Part shown: positions 22,092-33,953 of the stretch, in pieces | How the letters are laid out: every line of letters starts with the position of its first letter | Numbering within the stretch: the first letter of the stretch is position 1 | From: Candidatus Bathyarchaeota archaeon | GTDB taxonomy: Archaea; Thermoproteota; Bathyarchaeia; Bathyarchaeales; Bathycorpusculaceae | Assembly: GCA_963828195.1 (NCBI GenBank) | Contig: CAWHDT010000005.1 | Location: forward strand, 640,001 to 704,000 | DNA: 64,000 nt | Direction: 5' to 3' | Program-made: the position numbers and the translations under genes | Notes under the pieces: generated by a model | The model's input: the letters and a program-made list of their open reading frames with translations, nothing else | The model's database searches: none | What the model was told of the DNA's origin: nothing

Positions 22092-23102
22092 TTAGGCTTT
22101 TGGCTTAACTGGCGGTGCCGCTGGCTCAGACATCGGTGCCCCAATGGCTTCTCTGAGATAAGCCTTGAATGGACCCAGCTTCCCACCATAGTTACCAGAC
22201 GAAATCTTAACTATGCCGGGCACGCCGAGGGCTGCGGTTACGCCTTCTTTCATGCCTTTTTTGACTGCGTCCAAGGTTAAGCCGTTCATAACAATTTCGT
22301 AAACGCATTTGACGCCTTCTGGCACAACAGAGTCAGACACAAGTGTGCGCAGCGTTGGGCAGTACGGGTGGTTAGTTGAGGCTTTAAGTTTGTATTTAAG
22401 CGAGCCAGCCTTGCTTCCTGAACGGCAGACTCCTCCTGGAAACTGCATAATCACATCAGGAGCATTTGCGCGGATTGCATCTGCCGCCGCTTCAGCCGAT
22501 TTCAATCCTGATGGCTGATCTTCAGCAAAAATCATAAAGTTGCCGCCTGCAACCGCTTCCATAGCGCCAAAACCGTTTTCAACGATAAATTCGCCTTCCA
22601 TCACGGGAAGCTTCCAGCATTTTCTTCCTCCAACCATGGCTTTTTTCTGGTACCCATCGCCGAAGTATCGTAAGCTGTTGCCAACGTCCAATGTTCGTTT
22701 GCCGACTAACCCGTTGAAGGCTGCGGTTGTTGGACAAGTCAAAGTGCATTGACCAATACGCTGCATAAGTTGGTGCTTGAGTTCAAATCGGTCACGATTA
22801 TAAATTTGAATTAGCACACCTGGCCGCTTGTCAGGGGTCTGGTCTGCTGGAACAGTCCGCTCGATTGCTGCTTCCGCAGTTGCCTCAATTACGCTCGTGG
22901 CAAAACCCGTGGTTAAACTCGCGGCGATTAATGCCCACTTCTCGTTTTGAGCGGTAATTAAAACTCTTCCGACCCAAAGAGGAAACATTTCTGCAAAGGT
23001 ATCTTGAACCTTCACAACGTTTCCCATGGGCGATTTTACAAGGAACATTTTTTCTTTATCGTCATAGCTTTGGATTTCAACCGCGTTAGTGTTTGATGAC
23101 AT
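22092..23102 (-). CDS. ftr: Formylmethanofuran:H4MPT formyltransferase
   Basis: DTFAEMF, GFATSVI, TPDKRPG, RIGQCTLTCPT, AGGNF, SGSK, GNYGGKLG; start MSSNT at 23102. Confidence 0.92.
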   Translation of the reverse strand: MSSNTNAVEIQSYDDKEKMFLVKSPMGNVVKVQDTFAEMFPLWVGRVLITAQNEKWALIAASLTTGFATSVIEATAEAAIERTVPADQTPDKRPGVLIQIYNRDRFELKHQLMQRIGQCTLTCPTTAAFNGLVGKRTLDVGNSLRYFGDGYQKKAMVGGRKCWKLPVMEGEFIVENGFGAMEAVAGGNFMIFAEDQPSGLKSAEAAADAIRANAPDVIMQFPGGVCRSGSKAGSLKYKLKASTNHPYCPTLRTLVSDSVVPEGVKCVYEIVMNGLTLDAVKKGMKEGVTAALGVPGIVKISSGNYGGKLGPFKAYLREAIGAPMSEPAAPPVKPKA

Positions 23103-23332
23103 TGAGAGACCTTGCAGTTCAGTTGGGAATTGTATAGTTTCAATACCTTTATTATTGATATTTAAACTATTAATCCCTATCAACTTTATCTGCGTCCCTC
23201 TTAGTCGGATTATTCATTAATTAACTTTACTGAATGAATCTTAACCCTTGAATTTACTCGGTAATAACCCTAACCGCTTTAACCCACTTTTTTCCATAAG
23301 CATGGTTGACGATAGCACATACCCTTAAATTA

Positions 23333-23833
23333 TTATGAAATTTTGAAACCCCAAACATAATTAATAATATATGGATTGAAAGAAACTTGTTGCTCGGCAG
23401 TAATAATTTGAGTACTGTTACTTCCATAATCTTGAGTTATGTATATAGAGTTTGTAGAATTAAGAATATAGTAAGTGTCCATTAAATCCCAACCATCAGC
23501 AACATATACACGAACAGGAAAGGTTTGATTGTTTGTTATTATCAAACTTAGAACATTTGGTATTATCTGAATTAAAGCACTTCCATTTACAGGTGTAAGA
23601 GCATAATAAGGTGTACCATTATAGCAATTACAATATAAGAGTGTTAAGTTCTGAACAGTGAAAGGTAAGGGATAAAGTGTTACTCCATAAACTTCCTTTG
23701 CAGTTTGTGGAGTAATTGGGGTGTTTGCTGTGATTCTGATTATTGAATTATGATTTAAAGTAACTGAAATACCTGCTATTGTACTTGCAACTATAAGAAT
23801 TATCAAGATTGATATAACTATTTTTTTATTCAA
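23333..23833 (-). CDS. Membrane-anchored extracellular protein (element cargo)
   Basis: MNKKIV signal anchor; N/T/Y-rich with several N-x-S/T sequons; very AT-rich. Confidence 0.55.
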   Translation of the reverse strand: MNKKIVISILIILIVASTIAGISVTLNHNSIIRITANTPITPQTAKEVYGVTLYPLPFTVQNLTLLYCNCYNGTPYYALTPVNGSALIQIIPNVLSLIITNNQTFPVRVYVADGWDLMDTYYILNSTNSIYITQDYGSNSTQIITAEQQVSFNPYIINYVWGFKIS

Positions 23834-23950
23834 TTCTATCTCTAATATTCCAATTTACGCTTTTCAGATTTAAAACTTATCATCAATGAAAAATAGCAGT
23901 GCTACCGAGAACAAAAATACTCTCTAATAGCGGTTAGGATAACGCTAAAT

Positions 23951-24205
23951 ATGCAGCCTAACAAACTATGTTTTGGTGAGAATATGAACAAGATAGTATT
24001 AACAGAAAAAAGTAAGGGTTTTGTTATAGATAAACAAGAATGCCTTAATTGTAAAGCTGAATTCTTTTTTAAAATTAAAGACAATGCACTAATCGAGGCG
24101 AAGGGGTATGCAAAAAAGAAATCTGACAAAATTATTAGCTGTAAAATTTGTAATTCGGAATATAGTTTTGAAGTTAAAGGGTTTTCTGGTCGTGTTGGTC
24201 TCTAA
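23951..24205 (+). CDS. Small Zn-finger protein (CxxC...CxxC)
   Basis: CLNC and CKIC pairs; convergent with terL; start may be MNKIVL. Confidence 0.5.
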   Translation: MQPNKLCFGENMNKIVLTEKSKGFVIDKQECLNCKAEFFFKIKDNALIEAKGYAKKKSDKIISCKICNSEYSFEVKGFSGRVGL

Positions 24206-25677
24206 CTCCTTGAAAATAATCCTTTTTTATTTTGGTTAAGACGATTAGTGATAACAAAATTTCTATTGATAATAGGATGAATAGTGTTAGACTGCTTACC
24301 GAAATTACTCCAAGTTTCACCAGTGTTCATGTCATGAATAACTATTCTTCCACCTGTCGCTGGTTTAATAGGAAATTGCTGTTCATCCCAGAAGTTTAGC
24401 AACAAAAGAGAATCGACTAAATCGTCGTAATGCGGATTGCCTTGTTTTTTATAAGACTTCATTTCTTGAATTAAATCGTCATATTCTGATGATATCTCTA
24501 ACCCTTGACTCTCTATTACATGGCTAAGTTGTCCTTGCATGACTTCTTTGTAATAGCGTGAATTGACAGAGAAAACTTTGCTCTTACCGTAAGCTTCCGA
24601 TATGAGGTCAGACCACATAATGGGCAGACTATCAACCTTAACAAGCTGTACTTTATAGGACTTTAGAAACTCTGCTATTTCTGCAACTGCACCGTTAATC
24701 TGTTCAAATCCCCATGTCTTACGGAAGAGAACTTTAAGCTTATACTTACCGTTTTTCTCCCCTATTGTTAAGGCTAATTTGTCTCGGTCAGTGTGTCCAG
24801 TTCCACCACCGTCTATTCCAGCCCATCTAATACCTCCTTCGCTTAGTACCTGTTCTCTAATAGCTTTGTTAATTTGCTCTGTGTCCCATAGTAACTTAAT
24901 GCTGCTCTCGGATATTTCCCCGAGTACATCCCTTTTCCACTCATCTTCCGTCATTATCGTTTTCTTATTGCTTAGTTCTTCTTGACTATGCCAATCACAG
25001 TCTATTTCGCTCCACTTGAAAAGAGTAAAATTGTATTTCTTTGGGTTTTTGAGTATCTCATTAAACTTAGAATATCGAGAACTCGGAGTGCCTAAGACTA
25101 CCAGCTTAATCTTTTTACCGCTAAGATTTCCGTAAGCTGTAGATAGTGTTTCAGAAGGCATTAATTCAGCCTCATCTAAAAAGAGAATGCTTGCACTTGC
25201 TCCCCGTATGCCTTTCTCGGAAGAGGATAATAGCTGTACCTTGCTACCGTTCTTTAAAGAGTAGCCGTCTTTAGGAATAATGTTAGCTACCCCTTCCCAA
25301 CTTACATACTGTCTAAGCTCTGGGTTACTGCTAAAGATGTCTGTTATGTGTTGATAAACGTAGTTCTCTTTAGCAGAGACTAAGCACACTTGAATCTTGT
25401 TTTTGAGTGTTAAGTAAATGGCTGCTACTGCACAGCAAAGGCTCTTTCCAGTCTGTCTTCCAGCACTGATAAGAACATTCGTTAGCTCTGGGTTTTCTAA
25501 TCCCTGTAAGACCTCTACTTGTTTAGCGGTAGGAATTAGCTCTGTAATCTTAGTAAAAAATTCTGTTATGCTGAGACTGAGAAGGCTATTAACTTCTTTA
25601 GTTATTGCTAAGTTACCTTCTTTAGCCTTCAATCGGTCTCGATATTTTTTCTGCTTCTCAGCGTTAGTCATAGGCAT
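24202..25677 (-). CDS. Terminase large subunit-like ATPase-nuclease
   Basis: PTAKQ, AGRQTGKS (Walker A), IRG, LFLDEA (Walker B), LGTP, WAGIDGG and HYDDLVDS RNase H-like nuclease motifs. Confidence 0.85.
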   Translation of the reverse strand: MPMTNAEKQKKYRDRLKAKEGNLAITKEVNSLLSLSITEFFTKITELIPTAKQVEVLQGLENPELTNVLISAGRQTGKSLCCAVAAIYLTLKNKIQVCLVSAKENYVYQHITDIFSSNPELRQYVSWEGVANIIPKDGYSLKNGSKVQLLSSSEKGIRGASASILFLDEAELMPSETLSTAYGNLSGKKIKLVVLGTPSSRYSKFNEILKNPKKYNFTLFKWSEIDCDWHSQEELSNKKTIMTEDEWKRDVLGEISESSIKLLWDTEQINKAIREQVLSEGGIRWAGIDGGGTGHTDRDKLALTIGEKNGKYKLKVLFRKTWGFEQINGAVAEIAEFLKSYKVQLVKVDSLPIMWSDLISEAYGKSKVFSVNSRYYKEVMQGQLSHVIESQGLEISSEYDDLIQEMKSYKKQGNPHYDDLVDSLLLLNFWDEQQFPIKPATGGRIVIHDMNTGETWSNFGKQSNTIHPIINRNFVITNRLNQNKKGLFSRS

Positions 25678-25693
25678 TAAAGAATAACCTTCT

Positions 25694-25837
25694 TTATTTC
25701 TTGGATTCTGGGTTTGGTTGTGGTTGATTTAAAAGATTCCCATCTGCATAGAGTTTCTTGTAGAACTCAAGGTTCTTTTTACTTAATCCAATTTGGGTTA
25801 GAATCTCTTCCTTGACTTCTTCGCTGCTTTTGGTCAT
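25694..25837 (-). CDS. 47-aa hypothetical protein (not in ORF track)
   Basis: MTKSSEEVKEEILTQIGLSKKNLEFYKKLY...; ATGA-coupled to the upstream gene and directly before terL. Confidence 0.5.
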   Translation of the reverse strand: MTKSSEEVKEEILTQIGLSKKNLEFYKKLYADGNLLNQPQPNPESKK

Positions 25838-26508
25838 TTAAAAATTCCCTTTCTCTTAGTCTTAGCTTCCTTAGATGCATCCGCCCGTAACTGTTCTTCT
25901 GCATCATGTTTCGCTTTCTGTTCTGCCTCGTATATGCCTTTAGGAATCCATTGCCCTGTGTCTTCTCGTCTAACAAAACCAAAACCAGTCATTCCAAAAT
26001 CGTCTGGATATTTCTTCTTAGCTTCTGGTTGCTTTGGTTCTTGTAATGTAGCTGCATTTTTCACTGTTAGAAACTTAGCTATAATTGGGTCGTTAATTGG
26101 TGCAATCTTAAGCATGTAAACGTAATCGACTGTCTCGCCTTGAGTATCTGAGTTCATAGTTCCGACTTTTACTTTAGCTGTTGAGTAATCCTCTGACCAT
26201 TCTATATCCGAGCTTTTGTATATGCTGCCTTCGTAGAAATCAAAACGACCGTTCCCATTGTATCTTAGACTATACCGACCGTTTCCATCACTAAGACTAA
26301 TTGCAACCCCGACTGGTAATGTTGCTACTAAAAGCTCGCTGCGTGGCATTGATTGATACTCTGCTATCAGGTCGTTTAGTCGTTTTATAGCTGCCTTCTG
26401 TGCCTCTACCGAGGGATAGATAACACTCGGGTTTCCTACACTATTCTGTAGAGTTTCTATTTCTGTTAGAAGCTCTCGTTTCTTAATTTTTAATTCTTCT
26501 TGATTCAT
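25834..26508 (-). CDS. Hypothetical protein upstream of terL
   Basis: 224-aa ORF with purine-rich AAGGGG upstream; helical N-terminus, beta-rich middle, charged C-terminus. Confidence 0.6.
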   Translation of the reverse strand: MNQEELKIKKRELLTEIETLQNSVGNPSVIYPSVEAQKAAIKRLNDLIAEYQSMPRSELLVATLPVGVAISLSDGNGRYSLRYNGNGRFDFYEGSIYKSSDIEWSEDYSTAKVKVGTMNSDTQGETVDYVYMLKIAPINDPIIAKFLTVKNAATLQEPKQPEAKKKYPDDFGMTGFGFVRREDTGQWIPKGIYEAEQKAKHDAEEQLRADASKEAKTKRKGIFK

Positions 26509-26514
26509 TTTGAT

Positions 26515-26715
26515 TTATACCCCTTTTTTATTCTCACTATCATGAAATGAGAAATTGGAATTGTAAACACTCGCTCCCTGAGTAACTACTGGAAACTTTG
26601 CTAATCTCCTTAGTTCTCTGGGAGACTTTGTTTGGTTTGGACAATGCTTTCTTATAGAATAACCTCGCCTTTCCGTATCTTGTCTATACTGAAAACCTCT
26701 TAATTCCCTGCTCAA
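26515..26715 (-). CDS. Small basic hypothetical protein
   Basis: Overlap-coupled within the element operon. Confidence 0.4.
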   Translation of the reverse strand: MSRELRGFQYRQDTERRGYSIRKHCPNQTKSPRELRRLAKFPVVTQGASVYNSNFSFHDSENKKGV

Positions 26716-26927
26716 TGTGACCTACACTCCCCAGAATCACAAAGTTTCTGATAATAGTATTTTATATCCAATTTACTATTAGCGATAGGAGAAGGTAGAC
26801 CGAACTTAGTTAAGAGAGCTATATCATTCTCTAACTTTGATATGGTCTTCATTCTTTCCCGTCTAACTGGACACGTAGAAGAACAACTTTTCTCTGGAAA
26901 GGCTCTTTTCTTAATTGAGTGGGTCAT
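26712..26927 (-). CDS. Small Cys-containing hypothetical protein
   Basis: CSSTC...CDSGEC; ATGA coupling at both ends. Confidence 0.45.
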   Translation of the reverse strand: MTHSIKKRAFPEKSCSSTCPVRRERMKTISKLENDIALLTKFGLPSPIANSKLDIKYYYQKLCDSGECRSH

Positions 26928-27166
26928 TGTTCCCTACTCCAATCTCTCATTTCTGGATATACTTCGTTTCGTAACCAGACTAATCTATTAGAATTTCTTA
27001 TTTCGGTGTGCCATTGATAGGCTTCATTAATAGACTCTGCTTCCCCGTCAAATTCTAAATAACAGCCCATTGAACAGAAAAGGTCAGTCTCTAACTCTGG
27101 CTCGTAAAGTTTACCACATTGAACACATTTCCGTTTAATTACGGCTAATGAGCCTAAGTTTGCCAT
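26924..27166 (-). CDS. Treble-clef/TRASH-like Zn-finger protein
   Basis: CVQCGK...FCSMGC; start ATG overlaps the upstream stop (TAATG). Confidence 0.55.
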   Translation of the reverse strand: MANLGSLAVIKRKCVQCGKLYEPELETDLFCSMGCYLEFDGEAESINEAYQWHTEIRNSNRLVWLRNEVYPEMRDWSREQ

Positions 27167-27330
27167 TAACAAAACTTCCCCTGAGTGCTCCGTTTTCTTG
27201 GGATAGGATGGTCTCTTTTACATCTATTACCGCAACATACTTTTTTAGGGTCATAAGTTTGGAAGATTGTATCGCACCGAATACACTTCTTTGTTAAAAT
27301 AATCGATGAAATAGGAGCTAAGATTTCCAT
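27166..27330 (-). CDS. 54-aa treble-clef-like Zn-finger protein (not in ORF track)
   Basis: MEILAP...KKCIRCDTIF...VCCGNRC; same Cys pattern as the downstream gene. Confidence 0.55.
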   Translation of the reverse strand: MEILAPISSIILTKKCIRCDTIFQTYDPKKVCCGNRCKRDHPIPRKRSTQGKFC

Positions 27331-27332
27331 CA

Positions 27333-27515
27333 CTAAACACTTACTGCCTTGATTGCTGCCTTCTGTACTTTTGAAAGGTTAAGAAGCTTACAATTATCAG
27401 AAAGCATATTGTTTACTAAGTTATCTGGTAAAGTAACATTCATTTGAACTGGATGCTTGTTTCCACACTCGGGGCATACAGCATCAATAACAAAACTATG
27501 GGTCTTAGTTCCCAT
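27333..27515 (-). CDS. Small CPxCG protein
   Basis: MGTKTHSFVIDAVCPECGNKH...; coupled start (TAATG) at 27515. Confidence 0.5.
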   Translation of the reverse strand: MGTKTHSFVIDAVCPECGNKHPVQMNVTLPDNLVNNMLSDNCKLLNLSKVQKAAIKAVSV

Positions 27516-27640
27516 TAGACCACATCCCCTAACATTATTCTGCCACAATCGGCGCAGAGAAATCTTTGTTTCTTTCCCTGTCTGGTAATCTGCTTACCAG
27601 CTTTAACGATATGGCTACTGCCACATTGACATTTTTTCAT
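27515..27640 (-). CDS. IS1 InsA-like zinc ribbon, 41 aa (copy 1; not in ORF track)
   Basis: MKKCQCGSSHIVKAGKQITRQGKKQRFLCADCGRIMLGDVV; AT-rich TATA-like sequence upstream. Confidence 0.75.
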   Translation of the reverse strand: MKKCQCGSSHIVKAGKQITRQGKKQRFLCADCGRIMLGDVV

Positions 27641-27755
27641 TGTAGGCTACCCCTAATATATTGATTGATAGAAAGATATATTAAAGCTTCATGGTACTTA
27701 ATTATACCCTAAACTTAATAGTTCTGTGGTCGTAGAAAAATTAGCTATTCAGTTA

Positions 27756-27816
27756 TCCCTTTTTGCATTTTTCATACCCTTAAAATATCTACATCTTGCT
27801 ATGCAAAAAAGGGAAC
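27756..27816. repeat. Palindromic unit E1 (TCCCTTTTTGCAT...ATGCAAAAAAGGGAAC)
   Basis: Imperfect inverted arms around a TACCCTTAAAATATCTACATC core; similar to 30915-30986 and 31387-31464. Confidence 0.75.
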
Positions 27817-27826
27817 ATTCTTGTAA

Positions 27827-29287
27827 CTATGTCGATTCTTTTCTCTTTCTCGTTTGCTGTTCTCTTATCATTTTAGCTGTTTTTTCTTTTCCGAAAAAAA
27901 GGTACGAAGTGCGAGCATTATCATAATTTAAGCTCGGTTCTGAACCTTCTTTTAAAAGCATAAGCGTATCGCAGCTTGAGCACCGTTTAGGTCTACCGAT
28001 GTCTGTAGTCTGATATTCAAATTTCTCGTAGCAGTTGGAACAGTGACCATAACCAAAACCAAAATCAAGCCTCTTAACTAAACAATCAATAGTTATTTCT
28101 GGTACGAAACCAACATTTGCTTTATTACTGGTTTTGGCTTTTCTTTTAGATTCTTCACTTAGAATAAGAGTATTTAAGTCTTCCATAACCCTATTTAGAC
28201 CGATAGTGTAAAGGTCGGGGTTCTTTGTCTTCATATCTTCCATTTTCTTTCTAAACCGTTCCACTGCATCTTTACCGTAATAATATTCTATCGCCTTTCT
28301 GGTAATTTTTTCTGCTATTGCTAAAGTGTCTCGGGATATGAATAACGCATCTGCTTCGCATTTCACTGCACCGTATTTTTCTATAAAATCAGCATGCTTG
28401 AGTTTCTTGGTATACTTTAGTTCTGGATTATCTCTAAATTTGTTTACTTCCTTCATTAATTCAATGTCTTCGACTAATGGAAGATTGTATCTTTTTATAT
28501 CCTCTATGTTTAGACCAACTCGTTTAATTACTAATTTCTCTGGGTCATATCTCGTACTTGGTTTTATTTCCTCTAAGTATTCTTTGAAATTATCTGACAT
28601 CTGCCGACCAACAATATCGAAATCGTAAAAAAGTAGTAGTACGGGAGTGAGTTTATTCTCTTCGGCTTTCTGTGCCAACTTTGCTATGTGGTCTAATATT
28701 AACAGTGGCGCTCTTCCTTTAGTGCTTACGATTGGTATATGGTACTCTTGGCAAATAGGCGCTAATACTTCTTTAAGGTCTCCTTTTTCAACAGACATCA
28801 TAAGATAATACTTTTCGTCTTTCCAGAATCCAGTATTAGATTCAGCTATGTTATTCATTTTATCGGTAATGAGTTCTTGAATTTCCATAAGTCCTTCTGT
28901 TGGGTCTGTTTCTTCGATTATGCCTTTAAAATGTCGAGTCTCGTCTTGGTCTTCTTTAACAAAGTCCATAGGTAACAGGTTTGCTTTTCTACAAACTGCA
29001 ATAGCAGCACCACATTTTTTAAATTCTGCTTCTGTTTTAGCTATTTTTCCCTTAGATTCTAATAAATAACCCCAACCTCTAACATTACGCTTGATACCTG
29101 TTTCTGCATCAAAAGCCTTAAGGTCGTTAGCAAAGCGCCAATACCTTTCCCTATTATCGGGGTCACTAATGCTTCCTGTTGGAATATACCCTTTCAGTTC
29201 TTTAGGTTTTGTATAGACAGCATTGTATTCTTTCCCGAACATCTTAGTCGTAGCACTTTCAAACACTTTTTTGATAGCGTCATTCAT
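27827..29287 (-). CDS. Type IIB topoisomerase A-subunit-like (Mini-A/Topo VIII-A-like) Toprim protein
   Basis: VRGWGY winged-helix Tyr motif, SVEKGD, STKG, YDFDIVG (DxD), RVGLN, EADAL; C-terminal CxxC..CxxC. Confidence 0.72.
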   Translation of the reverse strand: MNDAIKKVFESATTKMFGKEYNAVYTKPKELKGYIPTGSISDPDNRERYWRFANDLKAFDAETGIKRNVRGWGYLLESKGKIAKTEAEFKKCGAAIAVCRKANLLPMDFVKEDQDETRHFKGIIEETDPTEGLMEIQELITDKMNNIAESNTGFWKDEKYYLMMSVEKGDLKEVLAPICQEYHIPIVSTKGRAPLLILDHIAKLAQKAEENKLTPVLLLFYDFDIVGRQMSDNFKEYLEEIKPSTRYDPEKLVIKRVGLNIEDIKRYNLPLVEDIELMKEVNKFRDNPELKYTKKLKHADFIEKYGAVKCEADALFISRDTLAIAEKITRKAIEYYYGKDAVERFRKKMEDMKTKNPDLYTIGLNRVMEDLNTLILSEESKRKAKTSNKANVGFVPEITIDCLVKRLDFGFGYGHCSNCYEKFEYQTTDIGRPKRCSSCDTLMLLKEGSEPSLNYDNARTSYLFFGKEKTAKMIREQQTRKRKEST

Positions 29288-30621
29288 TGGAGAACACCTT
29301 TAGCGTAATCATCGTACTTTACTGCTGGACACATGAAATGATAGATAACAGTCATTGGCGCAGTAGAATACTTCTTTGTAGAAAGACGGGTTTCTATTGG
29401 ACAGCATTTTAAGAAGACTTGTTGGGGTGCTGACATGTGATTAACACATAGATATAGCTGTAAGCCTTTGTTGTCTTCTGGTCTAAGAATCTTAGCGATT
29501 TCAAGGGCAAAGGGATATTCTACGTGTGATAGGTCTTTACAATCTTTATGTTCTTCCATTGATACCCTACAATCATAAGCCACTCCAATATTGAGCGAAT
29601 ACCCGTTATCGCATAATGTCCAGCCATTCTTCTCGCATCGTTTTTCAAATGCTTCTTTACCAACGATACCCAACACTGATTTAACAGTGCGTGAGTCCTC
29701 AATGGGTTTAGTTAACACTTTCATATTTGCATAGAGTTTTTCTATTCCTTCTTTGGATACTTTTGTTAGTAAGGTGTCTGCACCGTTTTTATAAAGTGAG
29801 TCTTGTAAGAAGGGATAGGTAATTTCATGACTTTGAAAACCCCTGAACATTGATGTTATGAACCTTTTAAGGGTTAAATCTGGACATGAAGCTGCATAAT
29901 CCAAAAATAACTCTGTAAACTCTTCGAGCTTGTACCAGAGAGCACTCGTTTCTTGTATTGGGTCTTTTCCGTCTGTAATTCTGTCGTAGACCGTTTCTTT
30001 ACCCATAAACTCATAGGTAATCTTTTTTGTTGGATTAACTAAGGCTGTAGCTTCAATGCTTCTCTCTATTTCCTTAGTGTCTAAATAATTTTGAACTGGA
30101 AACTTTACGGATATTACCGTTCCCCTGTCTATCCTTTTTGAAATTTGGATACTCGGGGGATTCATTCTTACATTGTCATGTGATAACGTTATAGTAAACT
30201 TGGAAGCTCCCGATTCTATGATGATAGACGGTATAGGCAGATTCTTAAGTTCAGCCGATATGTAGGAAAACCCAAAGATGCACTTTAATGCGTTACCTAT
30301 TCGACCTCTGCTAAGGCGCATTAATCCCCTGTTGGAGCTTGCTTTGTTATCAAAATCAAATATTTGGTCTATGACCTTTGGGGTTAACTTTGTTTCCCCA
30401 TCATTGGTTACGGTTACGGTATAGAAGTCTTTATCGCTGGTAATTGATACTCTTACTTTAACGGAGCCTTTTACATCTAAACCGTTAGCTAACATTTCCC
30501 TTACAGCAAAGTTTATCGCATGGTCTAAATCTGTTCCCGTTCTCAATCGTAGCTGTTCAGGTTCTATAAAATCTAAACTTCTCGGCAGACCCTTACGGAC
30601 TTCATTTATTAAAGATGTCAT
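29284..30621 (-). CDS. Type IIB topoisomerase B-subunit-like GHKL ATPase (Topo VIII-like)
   Basis: REMLANGLD (N box), VTNDG, SRGRIGNALK, GTVISV; C-terminal PFALE and DYAKG resemble the transducer; ATGA-coupled to the A-like gene. Start reassigned to MTSLINE. Confidence 0.75.
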   Translation of the reverse strand: MTSLINEVRKGLPRSLDFIEPEQLRLRTGTDLDHAINFAVREMLANGLDVKGSVKVRVSITSDKDFYTVTVTNDGETKLTPKVIDQIFDFDNKASSNRGLMRLSRGRIGNALKCIFGFSYISAELKNLPIPSIIIESGASKFTITLSHDNVRMNPPSIQISKRIDRGTVISVKFPVQNYLDTKEIERSIEATALVNPTKKITYEFMGKETVYDRITDGKDPIQETSALWYKLEEFTELFLDYAASCPDLTLKRFITSMFRGFQSHEITYPFLQDSLYKNGADTLLTKVSKEGIEKLYANMKVLTKPIEDSRTVKSVLGIVGKEAFEKRCEKNGWTLCDNGYSLNIGVAYDCRVSMEEHKDCKDLSHVEYPFALEIAKILRPEDNKGLQLYLCVNHMSAPQQVFLKCCPIETRLSTKKYSTAPMTVIYHFMCPAVKYDDYAKGVLQ

Positions 30622-30626
30622 GCTTC

Positions 30627-30773
30627 TCACGATTTGTTTTCTTCGATTGTTGGGTTTAGCACTCTGCCACATTCTTGGCATAGATACCTCTGGATTTTAC
30701 CCTTACGTGTAGTTCTGAATCCGAGCTTCACGATATGGGTACTTCCACAGATACATTTAGCTGGTTTACTCAT
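30627..30773 (-). CDS. IS1 InsA-like zinc ribbon, 48 aa (copy 2; not in ORF track)
   Basis: MSKPAKCICGSTHIVKLGFRTTRKGKIQRYLCQECGRVLNPTIEENKS; paralog of 27515-27640. Confidence 0.75.
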   Translation of the reverse strand: MSKPAKCICGSTHIVKLGFRTTRKGKIQRYLCQECGRVLNPTIEENKS

Positions 30774-30914
30774 TCTTCGTACTCTTCTACACTATAAATA
30801 GGTATATCTATAGATATAAGGATTATGGGTAATTAAGATATAATATATGGTCAAAGTGGTTCAAAATGAAATTCCCTATTATGCTTTAGTTCATGCTGTC
30901 AGCACCTTAACCTC

Positions 30915-30986
30915 TTCCCCTTTTTTGTATTTATTATACCTCTAAAAGATGTAGACCAGCCACTACAAAAAAGGGAACTTTCCCAT
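30915..30986. repeat. Palindromic unit E2
   Basis: Perfect 12-bp IR CCCTTTTTTGTA (30918-30929) / TACAAAAAAGGG (30964-30975), followed by AACTTTCCCAT. Confidence 0.8.
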
Positions 30987-31386
30987 TAGATTGGAAACAC
31001 CTGAAACACCTTACTTCTACAGGTAAACAAGCTAATCCAATAAGACATTAATTATCTATTAGTTTTTTAATTCTAACAGACAGAGAAACTCTATATCTAA
31101 TAATTTACTAAATTAAGAGACATAGAAACACCTTACTGGATGTTTATTGTCCAGCTATCTTACTACAGGTTGAGGTCGTTATTAGTTCTTAATATCCTGA
31201 AGCCTTGATGAAGGGGAACTAACCATTTAGCCACTTTATAACCGAAGTAACCTTACTGGTTCGGATAGACTTTTTTCCAATGCGATTCACCAATAAATAA
31301 ACAGCTAACGCATTGGGAGAATTAGCTGCCTACCTACTGATTACTAACCACTTTCTCGGGGAGCATAAAAAGTTTTATGGTCTTTG

Positions 31387-31464
31387 CCCTTTCTGCATTT
31401 TCTACGCTAAAAACATCTACATCGTAAACTTGATTGCCTAAGCAAAAAAGGGGAACTTACCCAT
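31387..31464. repeat. Palindromic unit E3
   Basis: CCCTTTCTGCATTTT...TAAAAACATCTACATC...GCAAAAAAGGGGAACTTACCCAT; aligns with E1 and E2. Confidence 0.75.
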
Positions 31465-31893
31465 CTGATAATAAAGTGAGGTAGTTGTTTAATTTTATAT
31501 TTTTTATAGTGTGCAGTATTCCTTACTGCACTTGGCGTTTCAAGCATTAATGAAGCATATTTCTAAGTTCTCCGTGCTGACTCTTGATACTCCTAAATGC
31601 TAAGAGATTGAGTATTAGAATTAGATTAGATGTTTATTGATGCCTGAGTGGTGGCATGGAGAACCATAGTAAAAGACCATGCTTGGAGACTAATAGAAAG
31701 ACCGTACCCACAATAAGAGGAATGTTAGCCTTAGAAACTTGATAGTTTAACGTTAAAAACTGTACTTGTTTCTTTAATGTATTAGAGCAATAGCGGAGTG
31801 TAAACGAGCTGGCGCATAGCCCTATTGCATAGTACAATTACTAAAAGCATGGGAAAATAATGATTGTCGGTAACAGTTTAGTTACTTGAAAGG

Positions 31894-33042
31894 TTACTCT
31901 TCTTTCAGTATATCGTCTGCTTGTTTGTCTCTCTCTTCTTGGTCATGAATTATCTCTTCCAGTGTGTAATCTTTAGCTAACAATCCACGTTCTTTGAAAG
32001 CTGAGAGCAGAGAATTAAAAGCATATTTTAGAGTAGATACTTCATTCTGTAAATCATCAAGTTTCTTAACCTGTTCCTTATTGACACCAGAAGTACCTTT
32101 GAAGTCTATGTTTAAGTAATCATTGTAAACAGTAGGGTACTTTTCTTCTATCTCACTCTGTAGGGTTTGAAGATAGGTAGAGTCTGAGATGTTAATTGAC
32201 TTACCCATTAGATACTTTATTTGAAACTCGTTAAAGCCACATCTTGATAGACGAGACATTAGCCATTTCCGTATATTGTGGAATCTCAAGCTCCCTGTAG
32301 TCTTTAGACCTGACTGCATCGCTAAACGGTAAAGCATCTTTTGAACTCCATCTTGGGTTATCGGGAACAGCCTTGAATCATTGTCTTTTCTAATGGCTAA
32401 GTATTTTGTCAGCCACTCGATAGCTAAGGGATTAAGAACACAAAAACGTGCTACTCCTGTCTTCTGCCGTGTATTGGCAAAGAAGATAAACTTCTCACTG
32501 TTTTGGGTAGCATGAGCTAATCTTTTTGTTATTACTTCTTTGTCTTGTTCTAAGAACGCTGATATTTCCCAACCTTCACTAACTGCAGTTGCTAAGAGAG
32601 CTTTCTCAAAAGTATCTCCTACCTCGAAAAGTAGCTTTAAGTCACCATTAGTAAAAACATGGCTGTTGTTATCAGCCTCTAAATTGAGTAGTTGTCCTTT
32701 TCTAAAAGTGACTACCTTATCAATCGTTAAGAGATAAGAACGCATGGCTGTAATTATGCTTAAGATTCCATTGTTCTTGAATCCCTTTTTTGTTTGCTCT
32801 CCTTGAAAAGTCAAAAAGAGCTTTTTGATTTCTTTACTATCCATCTCTTTTAAATTGGCTATAGAGACATTGGTTGCTTGTAGAAACCTTACTAATCTGC
32901 TTGCATATTGATGTCTTGTACTCTTTTTGTTAAACTCACTCAGCCATGACTCTATCGAAGGGTCACTATTCAAGATTTTTAGCTGTTCATCCGTAAAGTT
33001 AGACCAATCACTGTCTAAAACTCTATCTTTAAATTCTGACAT
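31894..33042 (-). CDS. Tyrosine recombinase/integrase
   Basis: STRHQY N-domain, RQKTG (catalytic K), FHNIRK (HxxR), YLMGK and DSTYL (catalytic Y); C-terminal coiled coil. Confidence 0.9.
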   Translation of the reverse strand: MSEFKDRVLDSDWSNFTDEQLKILNSDPSIESWLSEFNKKSTRHQYASRLVRFLQATNVSIANLKEMDSKEIKKLFLTFQGEQTKKGFKNNGILSIITAMRSYLLTIDKVVTFRKGQLLNLEADNNSHVFTNGDLKLLFEVGDTFEKALLATAVSEGWEISAFLEQDKEVITKRLAHATQNSEKFIFFANTRQKTGVARFCVLNPLAIEWLTKYLAIRKDNDSRLFPITQDGVQKMLYRLAMQSGLKTTGSLRFHNIRKWLMSRLSRCGFNEFQIKYLMGKSINISDSTYLQTLQSEIEEKYPTVYNDYLNIDFKGTSGVNKEQVKKLDDLQNEVSTLKYAFNSLLSAFKERGLLAKDYTLEEIIHDQEERDKQADDILKEE

Positions 33043-33052
33043 TTCTCAGACT

Positions 33053-33123
33053 CTCAGTATTAGTATAATGGCAGACCGATTAATAAAGTTAGCGAGATTC
33101 TAATACTGATTATCTCAGTACTG
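33053..33123. promoter_or_regulatory. Inverted-repeat operator upstream of integrase
   Basis: TCAGTATTAG (33054-33063) / CTAATACTGA (33100-33109) is a perfect 10-bp IR around a TATA-like sequence; third half-site CTCAGTA at 33114. Confidence 0.6.
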
Positions 33124-33248
33124 TATAATTTAAGAGTTTTCATGAGCAACCAACGTTTTCTAAATTTCTAAGGCTATTCAAAACGCAAACGGGGGGAACA
33201 TCAAAAACCAGCTTCCGAAGGGAAATATCCTTTGAAAAGTCTAAGCCG

Positions 33249-33953
33249 CTATTTTTCTACTTTGATTATATGCGGGATTTTACCTGCAGTGCCAACCTGA
33301 CCTTTGTAGATAATTAACACCCCTTCAACCCCTTCAATCGATAACCCCCTATTGATTCCTGCTTTTATCGCGGCTTCCACATTTTCGCCTTTAACAACGT
33401 TCCCCACGGCTGTCGCAGCTGCATCAGCAAGTGAGGCGTTTTTGCAGAAAACCGTTGCAGCTTCTGCGTCACCGAAACTTAGCGCGTGGCTGAAGCGTCC
33501 AGAACTGGTGGCGACTCCGATTGGGAACTCTGTTAGCCGAAAGCCGAAGCGTTTCGACAGGGGTTCTTCTCCGGCGGCAACTGCGACATCTACAGGCATG
33601 TTGGATTGCGCTGAGATTTCTCCGCCGTCCTCAACCACAGCCACCTCACAGCCCACGTCTTCCATATCGCCCACCGCTAAGTCCGCTATGACTCCAGCGA
33701 CAGCTGCCATAGGTCCGACGCCCACTTTTTGTGCAGCTAAAGCCATCAATTTCGCCACAAGCGGCTTTTCCGGCGGAGGGATCGGTTTAAGGGTGTACAA
33801 GAATTTGGGGTTTGCTCTGACATAGATTTCGAGTTCTTGCCTGTTGCGTTTGATTGATTCTTTTGCGGTTTCAATTGCTTGTTTTTTGTCAGAAATTATT
33901 GTGCATTGGGTTTCTTTCAGGGTGAAGTTTTCTTTGAAAAGGTTTCTAGTCAA
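33249..33953 (-). CDS. UPF0280 (ApbE-superfamily) protein
   Basis: VGPMAAVAG, EDGGEI, ATSSG...SFGDA, ADAAAT. Confidence 0.88.
   Translation of the reverse strand: MTRNLFKENFTLKETQCTIISDKKQAIETAKESIKRNRQELEIYVRANPKFLYTLKPIPPPEKPLVAKLMALAAQKVGVGPMAAVAGVIADLAVGDMEDVGCEVAVVEDGGEISAQSNMPVDVAVAAGEEPLSKRFGFRLTEFPIGVATSSGRFSHALSFGDAEAATVFCKNASLADAAATAVGNVVKGENVEAAIKAGINRGLSIEGVEGVLIIYKGQVGTAGKIPHIIKVEK

Follow-up and report, generated by a model that had tools for sequence, protein, structure and literature searches.

Small integrative satellites such as P4, PICI, cf-PICI, PLE and PICMI combine an integrase with a replication module and hijack helper capsids. Bacterial satellites often also carry packaging-specificity genes, which may be the terminase small subunit (TerS), TerS-modifying proteins or, in cf-PICI, a full head module together with terminase. 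To our knowledge, no satellite type has been described that carries the terminase large subunit (TerL) alone, without capsid genes. The known archaeal virus satellites are associated with spindle-shaped viruses or, in one case, with an Asgard virus, and the available text of the sources describes none with TerL (10.1101/2025.02.15.638363; 10.64898/2026.08.12.739948). Our literature searches found one comparable element in print, NitKor-E1 of Candidatus Nitrosopumilus koreensis AR1, a cryptic integrated element whose function is called enigmatic, and which is considered probably a relic, in the accessible part of that paper (PMC6563490). Here we describe an integrated element of 9,991 bp in the genome of a Candidatus Bathyarchaeota archaeon, at positions 23137-33127 of a 64,000-nucleotide stretch of contig CAWHDT010000005.1 (positions 640,001 to 704,000), referred to below as the window and used for all coordinates unless another contig or locus is named. 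The element is genuine and recently mobile and belongs to a family of terminase-module elements; its best explanation, advanced tentatively, is a satellite equipped with a packaging motor of its own.

Compared by description, the element and NitKor-E1 are both archaeal and integrated, with a tyrosine integrase and a terminase as the only gene of head-tailed viruses. NitKor-E1 differs in being a single case and in carrying TerS, VapBC and a restriction endonuclease, as far as the accessible text describes it (PMC6563490), whereas here no TerS was recognised, TerL has at least 12 relatives and is under strong selection, and the slot occupied by a topoisomerase-like gene pair is filled by varied genes in relatives. 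The conserved compact layout, the varied slot genes and the strong selection on TerL make a relic unlikely. Like the bacterial phage satellites, the element is small, with an integrase, a putative replication module of its own and no full virion module; unlike them it has TerL without capsid genes, and no homology to their genes was found. The satellites pSSVx, pSSVi, the SRCEs of halophiles and NMV2S are similar in joining a plasmid-derived replication module to an incomplete morphogenetic module, for example a packaging or assembly ATPase only. However, in the portions of the sources available, the first three parasitise spindle-shaped viruses and encode AAA+ ATPases rather than a terminase (10.1101/2025.02.15.638363), and NMV2S, associated with an Asgard head-tailed virus, is described as encoding a helicase-primase, a Cas4-like nuclease and an Arc-like regulator, and no TerL is mentioned for it (10.64898/2026.08.12.739948). 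Fuxivirus and Kunpengvirus belong to the same host group and have a TerL of the same superfamily, an integrase in some, and a Cas4-like nuclease that also occurs in the IMG/VR contigs with the TerLs nearest to the clade of the element; they differ, in the description accessible, by a size of ~32 kb or more and by HK97 capsid, portal and tail genes, of which the element has none recognisable (10.1101/2023.08.24.554615). Terminases are regarded as a signature of HK97-capsid viruses, and here a capsid-less occurrence forms a family.

The limits of the element were set by comparison of both junctions with uninterrupted sites. TGTATA is the sole sequence that both attachment sites, attL and attR, share with the uninterrupted site, and the insertion therefore spans the interval given above, with the right-hand core copy counted in. 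This core was obtained solely by that comparison; an att search by repeats found no direct repeat of at least 14 nt. A sequence-only reading of the window had recognised an element at 23300-33150, which was right as to its presence and inexact as to its ends, the left one falling about 160 bp short. The GC content is 0.31-0.40 across the element (23000-33200) vs 0.45-0.49 in both flanks. The insertion point lies about 30 bp upstream of the likely start codon of ftr, and a 401-nt probe over this start matched 38 of 41 genomes, among them 37 of the 40 sampled congeners, with homology ending at 23135-23158 in every matching genome. The empty site between ftr and the UPF0280 gene that the sequence-only reading proposed looking for in relatives does exist: in four of the 29 fetched congener loci (L044, L049, L051 and L052) the UPF0280 gene lies at most ~110 bp from ftr, and the site is also uninterrupted in the congener G507, whose sibling element (locus L008) sits elsewhere. 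None of the 29 fetched ftr loci contains the element. In the ftr region the identity to G507 is 85%, within the range of same-genus genomes, and contigs of related organisms in two public runs (X3 and X4) continue at 23140 into sequence like that of the attR side, as expected of an uninterrupted site. With just 6 bp, the att core is short, and it lies within an intergenic promoter region rather than a tRNA gene; no tRNA target was found in the window.

All genes of the element except p84 are on the minus strand and tightly coupled (Table 1). By open reading frame (ORF) coordinates, four junctions have 4-nt overlaps (B/A of the topoisomerase-like pair, p82/p71b, p71b/p66 and p224/p47) and p55/p82 overlap by 7 nt. 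Only five ORFs exceed 200 amino acids (aa), four of which were assigned, the fifth being p224, and eight ORFs are of 41-82 aa. The integrase, type IIB topoisomerase-like pair, micro-ORFs and intact TerL that the sequence-only reading had listed in less than 10 kb are all found where it placed them, on the minus strand, and the overlaps bear out the gene coupling it described. Its view that no capsid or portal is recognisable also held, as no element ORF matched capsid, portal, protease, scaffold or TerS families in Pfam, PHROGs or NCBIfam; the same libraries detected a capsid and a portal in the locus L009 and in a provirus elsewhere on the same contig. The element does not encode, with its TerL, the HK97-fold capsid and portal that define a head-tailed provirus. 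It has an integrase and a replication module of its own without a complete virion module, as satellites have, where the replication role of the topoisomerase-like pair is proposed from its position and the literature. The earlier statement that no replicase is present needs qualifying, in that this pair fills the slot that holds a PrimPol-PriCT-DUF927 protein in a sibling.

TerL matches phrog_2 (3.3e-25, residues 43-430) and Terminase_6N (PF03237; 28.4 bits, cut-off 22), and T4 gp17 is its best PDB sequence match. Across 12 aligned sequences, Walker A residues G77 and K78, Walker B residues D168 and E169 and the acidic residues D349, D418, D419 and D422 are invariant, and S79 and D289 are conserved in at least 90%. 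We infer that the conserved acidic residues serve RNase-H-like nuclease catalysis, and judged by sequence TerL has both an N-terminal ASCE ATPase and a C-terminal RNase-H-like nuclease. The ratio of nonsynonymous to synonymous substitution rates (dN/dS) against L008 is 0.08 over 407 codons, the lowest of the element genes compared; as a cross-check, differences at codon positions 1, 2 and 3 number 17, 12 and 73. TerL, described beforehand as intact-looking, in an element with no evident decay, lives up to that description and looks functional, and this strong purifying selection argues against a decaying deletion derivative. The N-terminal basic helix, which had been proposed as a DNA-recognition module in place of TerS, is conserved in all 12 aligned sequences (Q9 and Y12 invariant, R13 and K17 in at least 90%). 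It is also present in P0013, which groups with capsid-bearing viral TerLs, and is therefore not special to compact elements.

In a collection of 5.8 billion proteins, TerL has 12 relatives: ten at 55-90% identity, one 285-aa fragment at 55% and P0013 at 34%. TerL scans located a single locus in a genome (L008), 12 in metagenomes with best-segment identities of 55-73% and the distant locus L039 (25%). No other genome among 200 of the order has a TerL of comparable identity, and none among 400 genomes of the class has one at E <= 1e-30. The TerL phylogeny, a tree of 33 sequences, placed the element in a monophyletic clade (98/98) apart from capsid-associated TerLs. The nearest TerLs with capsid and portal neighbours, on IMG/VR contigs, are 29-37% identical and form a separate group including L009, where an HK97 capsid (phrog_544, 5.5e-13) and a portal (phrog_9232, 1.2e-9) surround TerL.

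The sibling L008 is ~9 kb long and lies at a different chromosomal site, with a TerL 94% identical by tblastn best segment. It shares ten genes with the element at 34-92% identity (the integrase, zf48, zf41, p71a, p55, p82, p71b, p224, p47 and TerL), for which dN/dS is 0.18-0.19 in p47, zf41 and zf48, 0.26 in p71b and 0.31 in p82 and p224. Its topoisomerase slot holds a 549-aa ParB-N-domain protein, and other small genes lie downstream of its TerL. In L038 a 653-aa PrimPol-PriCT-DUF927 protein is encoded upstream of the core. Homologues of p82 precede TerL in eight of 13 metagenome loci, and homologues of p71b are present in five of 13. The compact layout is conserved and not accidental. The conserved core of the family comprises TerL, some zinc-ribbon micro-ORFs and, upstream of TerL, a gene for a coiled-coil/beta protein. 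A tyrosine integrase is present as well, and the genes in the topoisomerase slot vary. As regards the shared order of integrase, topoisomerase and terminase genes that the sequence-only reading suggested searching for, the scans gave compact TerL siblings, with the topoisomerase slot differing in L008 and L038, and IMG/VR matches reaching 37% at most. Its two misgivings, that relatives might be full proviruses or that an ORF might prove to be a capsid or portal, did not materialise: L008 and the loci at 60-73% are compact and lack capsid and portal genes, and no ORF of the element is recognisable as either. The left flank of L008 belongs to a multi-copy surface-protein family in the genome described here (G000), so a matching uninterrupted site is not definable. 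G000 itself has no homologues of the L008 ParB-N protein, the PrimPol protein, the L009 capsid and portal, the p233 family or the giant proteins of L034, the last two of which are described below.

The coiled-coil/beta protein of the element, p224, has 23 relatives among 1.84 billion representatives. This ORF had been singled out at the outset for structure and profile comparison, which gave no significant fold match and no PDB profile match: its AF2 model (pLDDT 78.5) had no Foldseek match to the PDB at E <= 0.001, a wide structure search (VIA) returned helical-hairpin matches only, with Z below 8, and the ESM Atlas gave no usable match. An IMG/VR scan with the p224 alignment found no relative. 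The protein is too small for an HK97 capsid or portal. The C-terminus of TerL consists of a basic run followed by G-L-F-S, and that of p224 of a basic run followed by G-I-F. This tail pattern is met by only three of the 3,464 genome ORFs of at least 100 aa, two of which encode TerL and p224 and lie almost next to each other. Five sibling loci have, in place of p224, proteins of 217-238 aa from an unrelated family (p233) that is built alike, with a coiled coil, a beta domain and a linker. In four of these five the C-terminus is a basic run and then G-L-F-R; when p224 was compared with the family by hhalign, only the 14-column tail aligned, at a probability of 1.4%. The TerLs of capsid-bearing IMG/VR contigs do not match the pattern, and the TerL of L008 has Glu instead of the tail Gly. 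The shared tail may be a docking peptide for a common partner, and such a short peptide could help to fish for the docking partner of the motor. A complex prediction for TerL and p224 scored 0.00, which counts neither way.

The A-like protein of the type IIB topoisomerase-like pair matches phrog_6247 'DNA topoisomerase' at 3.1e-44. It has the 5Y-CAP Arg and Tyr and the Toprim Glu and DxDxxG: in 16 aligned homologues R70, E77, E167, D222, D224 and G227 are invariant and Y74 is conserved in at least 90%. The eight best PDB fold matches of its AF2 model (pLDDT 77.7) are all Topo VI A chains (probability 0.99-1.00, E 3.3e-4 to 1.9e-2), with TM-scores that are low because the domains sit differently. 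The core is 33% identical to ~300-aa Cellulophaga phage proteins, and the C-terminal box reads K-C-E-[AS]-[DN]-A-L. The B-like protein matches NF003218 (2.2e-10, residues 55-347, far below the equivalog cut-off) and HATPase_c (2.9e-4). Since B-A fusions occur among the homologues (P0049, P0062 and P0081), the two genes would work together. Topo mini-A is similar in being borne by mobile elements and in its Arg and Tyr, Toprim Glu and DxDxxG, but according to the accessible text it is a stand-alone protein of ~300 aa with the box xWELDAL, and no B partner ('Mini-B') was found adjoining mini-A genes (PMC7671362), whereas the protein described here has 486 aa, a B-like partner and another box. 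In Topo VIII the B and A moieties occur together as they do here, but the same text gives it the box RVELNAM and an Arg three residues after the Tyr (PMC7671362), neither of which is seen in the element, where Y74 is followed by L-L-E. The group of this pair appears to differ from both published mobile-element subfamilies, and the element gives a mini-A-like type IIB topoisomerase a natural B partner. Mini-A has been proposed, in the parts of the sources available, as a replication initiator of small archaeal viruses (PMC7671362; 10.1101/2021.07.29.453957), and the pair would here start or resolve replication of the excised circle.

If the element is a satellite, its integrase would excise it and the excised element would be copied via the module in its own topoisomerase slot. 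TerL, aided in DNA recognition by p224 and the zinc-ribbon proteins, would cut element DNA and pump it into the procapsids of a co-resident head-tailed virus, and TerL itself could serve as the packaging-redirecting gene. TerL and p224 would attach to one and the same partner through their basic-G-L/I-F tails, for example to the helper portal or procapsid. The replication role, packaging, helper dependence and docking are all deduced steps of this scheme. Head-tail proviruses in G000 and G507 could act as helpers. About 86 kb upstream of the element (G000 C5:555700-577000, L075 and L076) is a head-tail provirus-like cluster encoding a portal (phrog_9232, 2.1e-28), an HK97-type capsid (phrog_1650, 1e-15), cement, tape-measure-like and 944-aa lectin-domain proteins, in which no TerL was found with PF03237, PF03354, phrog_2 or the TerL of the element. 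Upstream of the portal in this cluster is a 212-aa ORF, then SecY. Members of the portal family were found in 16 of 61 congeners, with three portal loci in G507, and in six congener loci (L087, L088, L089, L091, L092 and L096) a TerL of another type stands immediately before a homologous portal. That these are the first satellites of head-tailed archaeal viruses, of a type undescribed in any domain, with their own TerL in place of TerS or capsid genes, tail docking on helper procapsids and here perhaps complementation of a TerL-less provirus, is as a whole possible rather than likely. The element is a concrete, testable candidate for a tailed-virus satellite in an uncultivated, globally abundant archaeal group.

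Several points weigh against the satellite explanation. No helper was identified. Circular forms, which the sequence-only reading had advised looking for, did not appear: in the fragmentary, low-depth contigs of four public runs there was no excised circle or excised-form junction, no concatemer and no same-strain uninterrupted site. The type of TerL beside the resident portal family in congeners is only ~23% identical to the TerL of the element, and portal compatibility is therefore doubtful. No TerS was recognised in the element with PHROGs and the other family libraries, and the satellites with TerL that we know of also carry head genes. In IMG/VR no member of the TerL clade appeared above 37% identity, and TerL is interrupted in two relatives, by a 1-nt insertion in L008 and by division into two pieces in L037. 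Upstream of TerL (55% identical) in L034 are two giant proteins (L034:3089-9522), one of 1113 aa with a Peptidase_S74 tail-fibre chaperone domain and one of 1002 aa with language-model features similar to those of Uroviricota tail or baseplate proteins; the visible 10-14 kb contain neither a capsid nor a portal gene. With such tail-fibre-like giants, some members of the clade may build their own particles. The proposal of a satellite with its own motor, already made by the sequence-only reading, is on these results supported in part, by the compact siblings, the selection on TerL and the possible helpers; helper dependence, excision and packaging are presumed.

The alternative that fares best, which we consider unlikely, is that TerL has been repurposed in a plasmid-like integrative element, where its ATPase-nuclease would resolve concatemers, aid excision or block virus packaging to the benefit of the host. 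Capsid, portal and TerS are lacking in both the element and L008, and TerL shows strong conservation in such surroundings. The genome has another solitary TerL, unrelated to the first and intact at 465 aa (G000 C6:21793-23190, L002; phrog_2, 4.5e-42), which lies among host-like genes with neither a capsid nor a portal close by and has homologues of 490-514 aa in three congeners (G027, G120 and G171); solitary TerLs therefore recur in the genus. In the text available, terminases had not previously been seen in non-viral elements and NitKor-E1 was left unexplained (PMC6563490). However, PADLOC assigned no defence family to six element proteins, among them TerL, p224 and the topoisomerase pair, and the ATPase and nuclease halves of TerL are both conserved as in packaging enzymes. 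We also know of no non-packaging role of a TerL.

It is improbable that the element arose by deletion from a head-tailed provirus and is non-functional as a virus, with its TerL kept by chance or recently orphaned. This is the reading given for NitKor-E1 in the portion of the paper accessible (PMC6563490), and it would fit the interruptions of TerL in L008 and L037. The genome also holds other degraded proviral remnants, such as G000 C9:166931-169515, a degraded provirus of the C5 portal family in which a 254-aa TerL ATPase fragment is followed by a portal split into two ORFs. Against a relic, elements with this compact gene order and sharply defined ends occupy two different chromosomal sites in two species. 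Purifying selection acts on every gene that they share and is strongest on TerL, and the constant core with its changing occupants of the topoisomerase slot implies a long history as small elements. The nearest capsid-bearing relatives of TerL are also only 29-37% identical.

An autonomous virus of an unrecognised kind, with p224 or the p233 family, or the giants in L034, as the equivalent of capsid or portal, is quite improbable. Basic C-terminal tails are common in nucleic-acid-binding capsid proteins, and p224 has such a tail and no known fold match; the two L034 giants, with their Peptidase_S74 and Uroviricota-tail-like features, point the same way. However, p224 is missing from the five sibling loci that have an unrelated protein instead, and a virion module would hardly fit into ~10 kb that hold only five ORFs of more than 200 aa. 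Every known virus that uses a terminase has a portal and a capsid of the HK97 fold, as the accessible text also states (PMC6563490). Least probable by far is a two-part arrangement in which the TerL of the element serves the C5 provirus in trans and the loci depend on each other, as suggested by the portal, capsid, cement and tape-measure genes of that cluster with no TerL found and by the TerL directly preceding the homologous portal in six congener loci, since the cognate TerL of that portal family is of the C6/C9 type, with an intact copy at C6, the provirus may simply be defective, and the case rests on one genome.

Table 1. Features of the integrated element, with positions in the 64,000-nucleotide window
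Feature	Position	Strand	Basis or remarks
attL core TGTATA	23131..23136	none	junctions compared with uninterrupted sites L049, L044, L051, L052, L046 and L072
Integrated element	23137..33127	-	homology to congeners ends at ~23140 and restarts at 33122; low GC
p166, predicted secreted or membrane-anchored Asn-rich protein	23333..23833	-	ORF; variable cargo, not shared with L008
p84, zinc-ribbon protein, sole plus-strand gene	23951..24205	+	weak Zn-ribbon Pfam matches; none in L008
TerL, 491 aa, C-terminal basic run then G-L-F	24202..25677	-	phrog_2, Terminase_6N, conserved motifs
p47 micro-ORF, coupled to p224 and TerL	25694..25837	-	80% identical in L008; dN/dS 0.18
p224, proposed TerL partner	25834..26508	-	helical hairpin, small beta domain, basic C-terminal helix ending G-I-F
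Coupled micro-ORFs p66, p71b, p82, p55 and p71a	26515..27548	-	mostly Cys-rich zinc ribbons; homologues in L008 and metagenome loci
zf41, InsA-like zinc ribbon, zf48 paralogue (62% identical)	27515..27640	-	weak Zn_ribbon_InsA match
Type IIB topoisomerase A-like protein, 486 aa	27827..29287	-	mini-A-like core ~46-353 and C-terminal 4-Cys ribbon
Topo VI-B-like GHKL ATPase, 465 aa	29284..30681	-	overlaps A-like gene by 4 nt
zf48, InsA-like zinc ribbon	30627..30773	-	81% identical in L008
1.1-kb non-coding region, candidate origin or regulatory region	30774..31893	none	repeated motifs D1 and D2
Tyrosine integrase adjoining attR	31894..33042	-	PF00589, phrog_216, NF040815; 65% identical to L008 integrase
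attR core TGTATA	33122..33127	none	junctions compared with uninterrupted sites

The family matches of the integrase are weak (PF00589 at E 4.9e-6 and 26.9 bits, just under the cut-off of 27.1; phrog_216 at 2e-7; NF040815 at 5.7e-10). They are consistent with a tyrosine recombinase, as are the H-x-x-R motif visible in the translation and the precisely att-bounded insertion. A 64-nt repeat, D1, has two copies that are 73% identical (27757-27820 and 30919-30982), one preceding zf41 and the other zf48, and a third copy of its 19-nt core is found at 31444-31462, in the 1.1-kb non-coding region. The D1 repeats are candidate operators or iterons. Positions 31113-31893 of this region lie within a stretch ~69% identical to L008. 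The region had no Rfam match, with only a sub-threshold match to a miRNA, and a scan for bacterial promoters and terminators stayed at shuffle level, with bacterial models that are unsuited to archaea. The single CRISPR array of the genome (G000 C3:403196-404183) has 15 repeats of 30 nt, with two spacers duplicated, and none of its 14 spacers matches the element or any fetched locus.

The p166 protein had no family match in Pfam, PHROGs or NCBIfam and no PDB match. The sequences that flank its gene (23239-23282 and 23828-23884) are found 16 bp apart at G000 C7:11489-11604, and since they stand side by side elsewhere in the genome, p166 seems to be a small cassette placed between two conserved stretches. 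The first of these flanks was found again in several congeners.

Beside the element are ftr (22092-23183 as listed; NF002554, 4.4e-118), which is adjoined by an aRF1 gene recognised by eye from its translation, and the UPF0280/PRK04334 gene (33249-33953). Together, ftr and the aRF1 gene identify the host as archaeal. The insertion parts ftr from its upstream region. In addition to the four loci in which the UPF0280 gene is closest to ftr, it lies within 524 bp of ftr in L053 and after a 1.3-kb insert in L047, and the remaining fetched ftr loci have different sequence or end there. Many congeners have something other than UPF0280 upstream of ftr, and this site may be an insertion hotspot.

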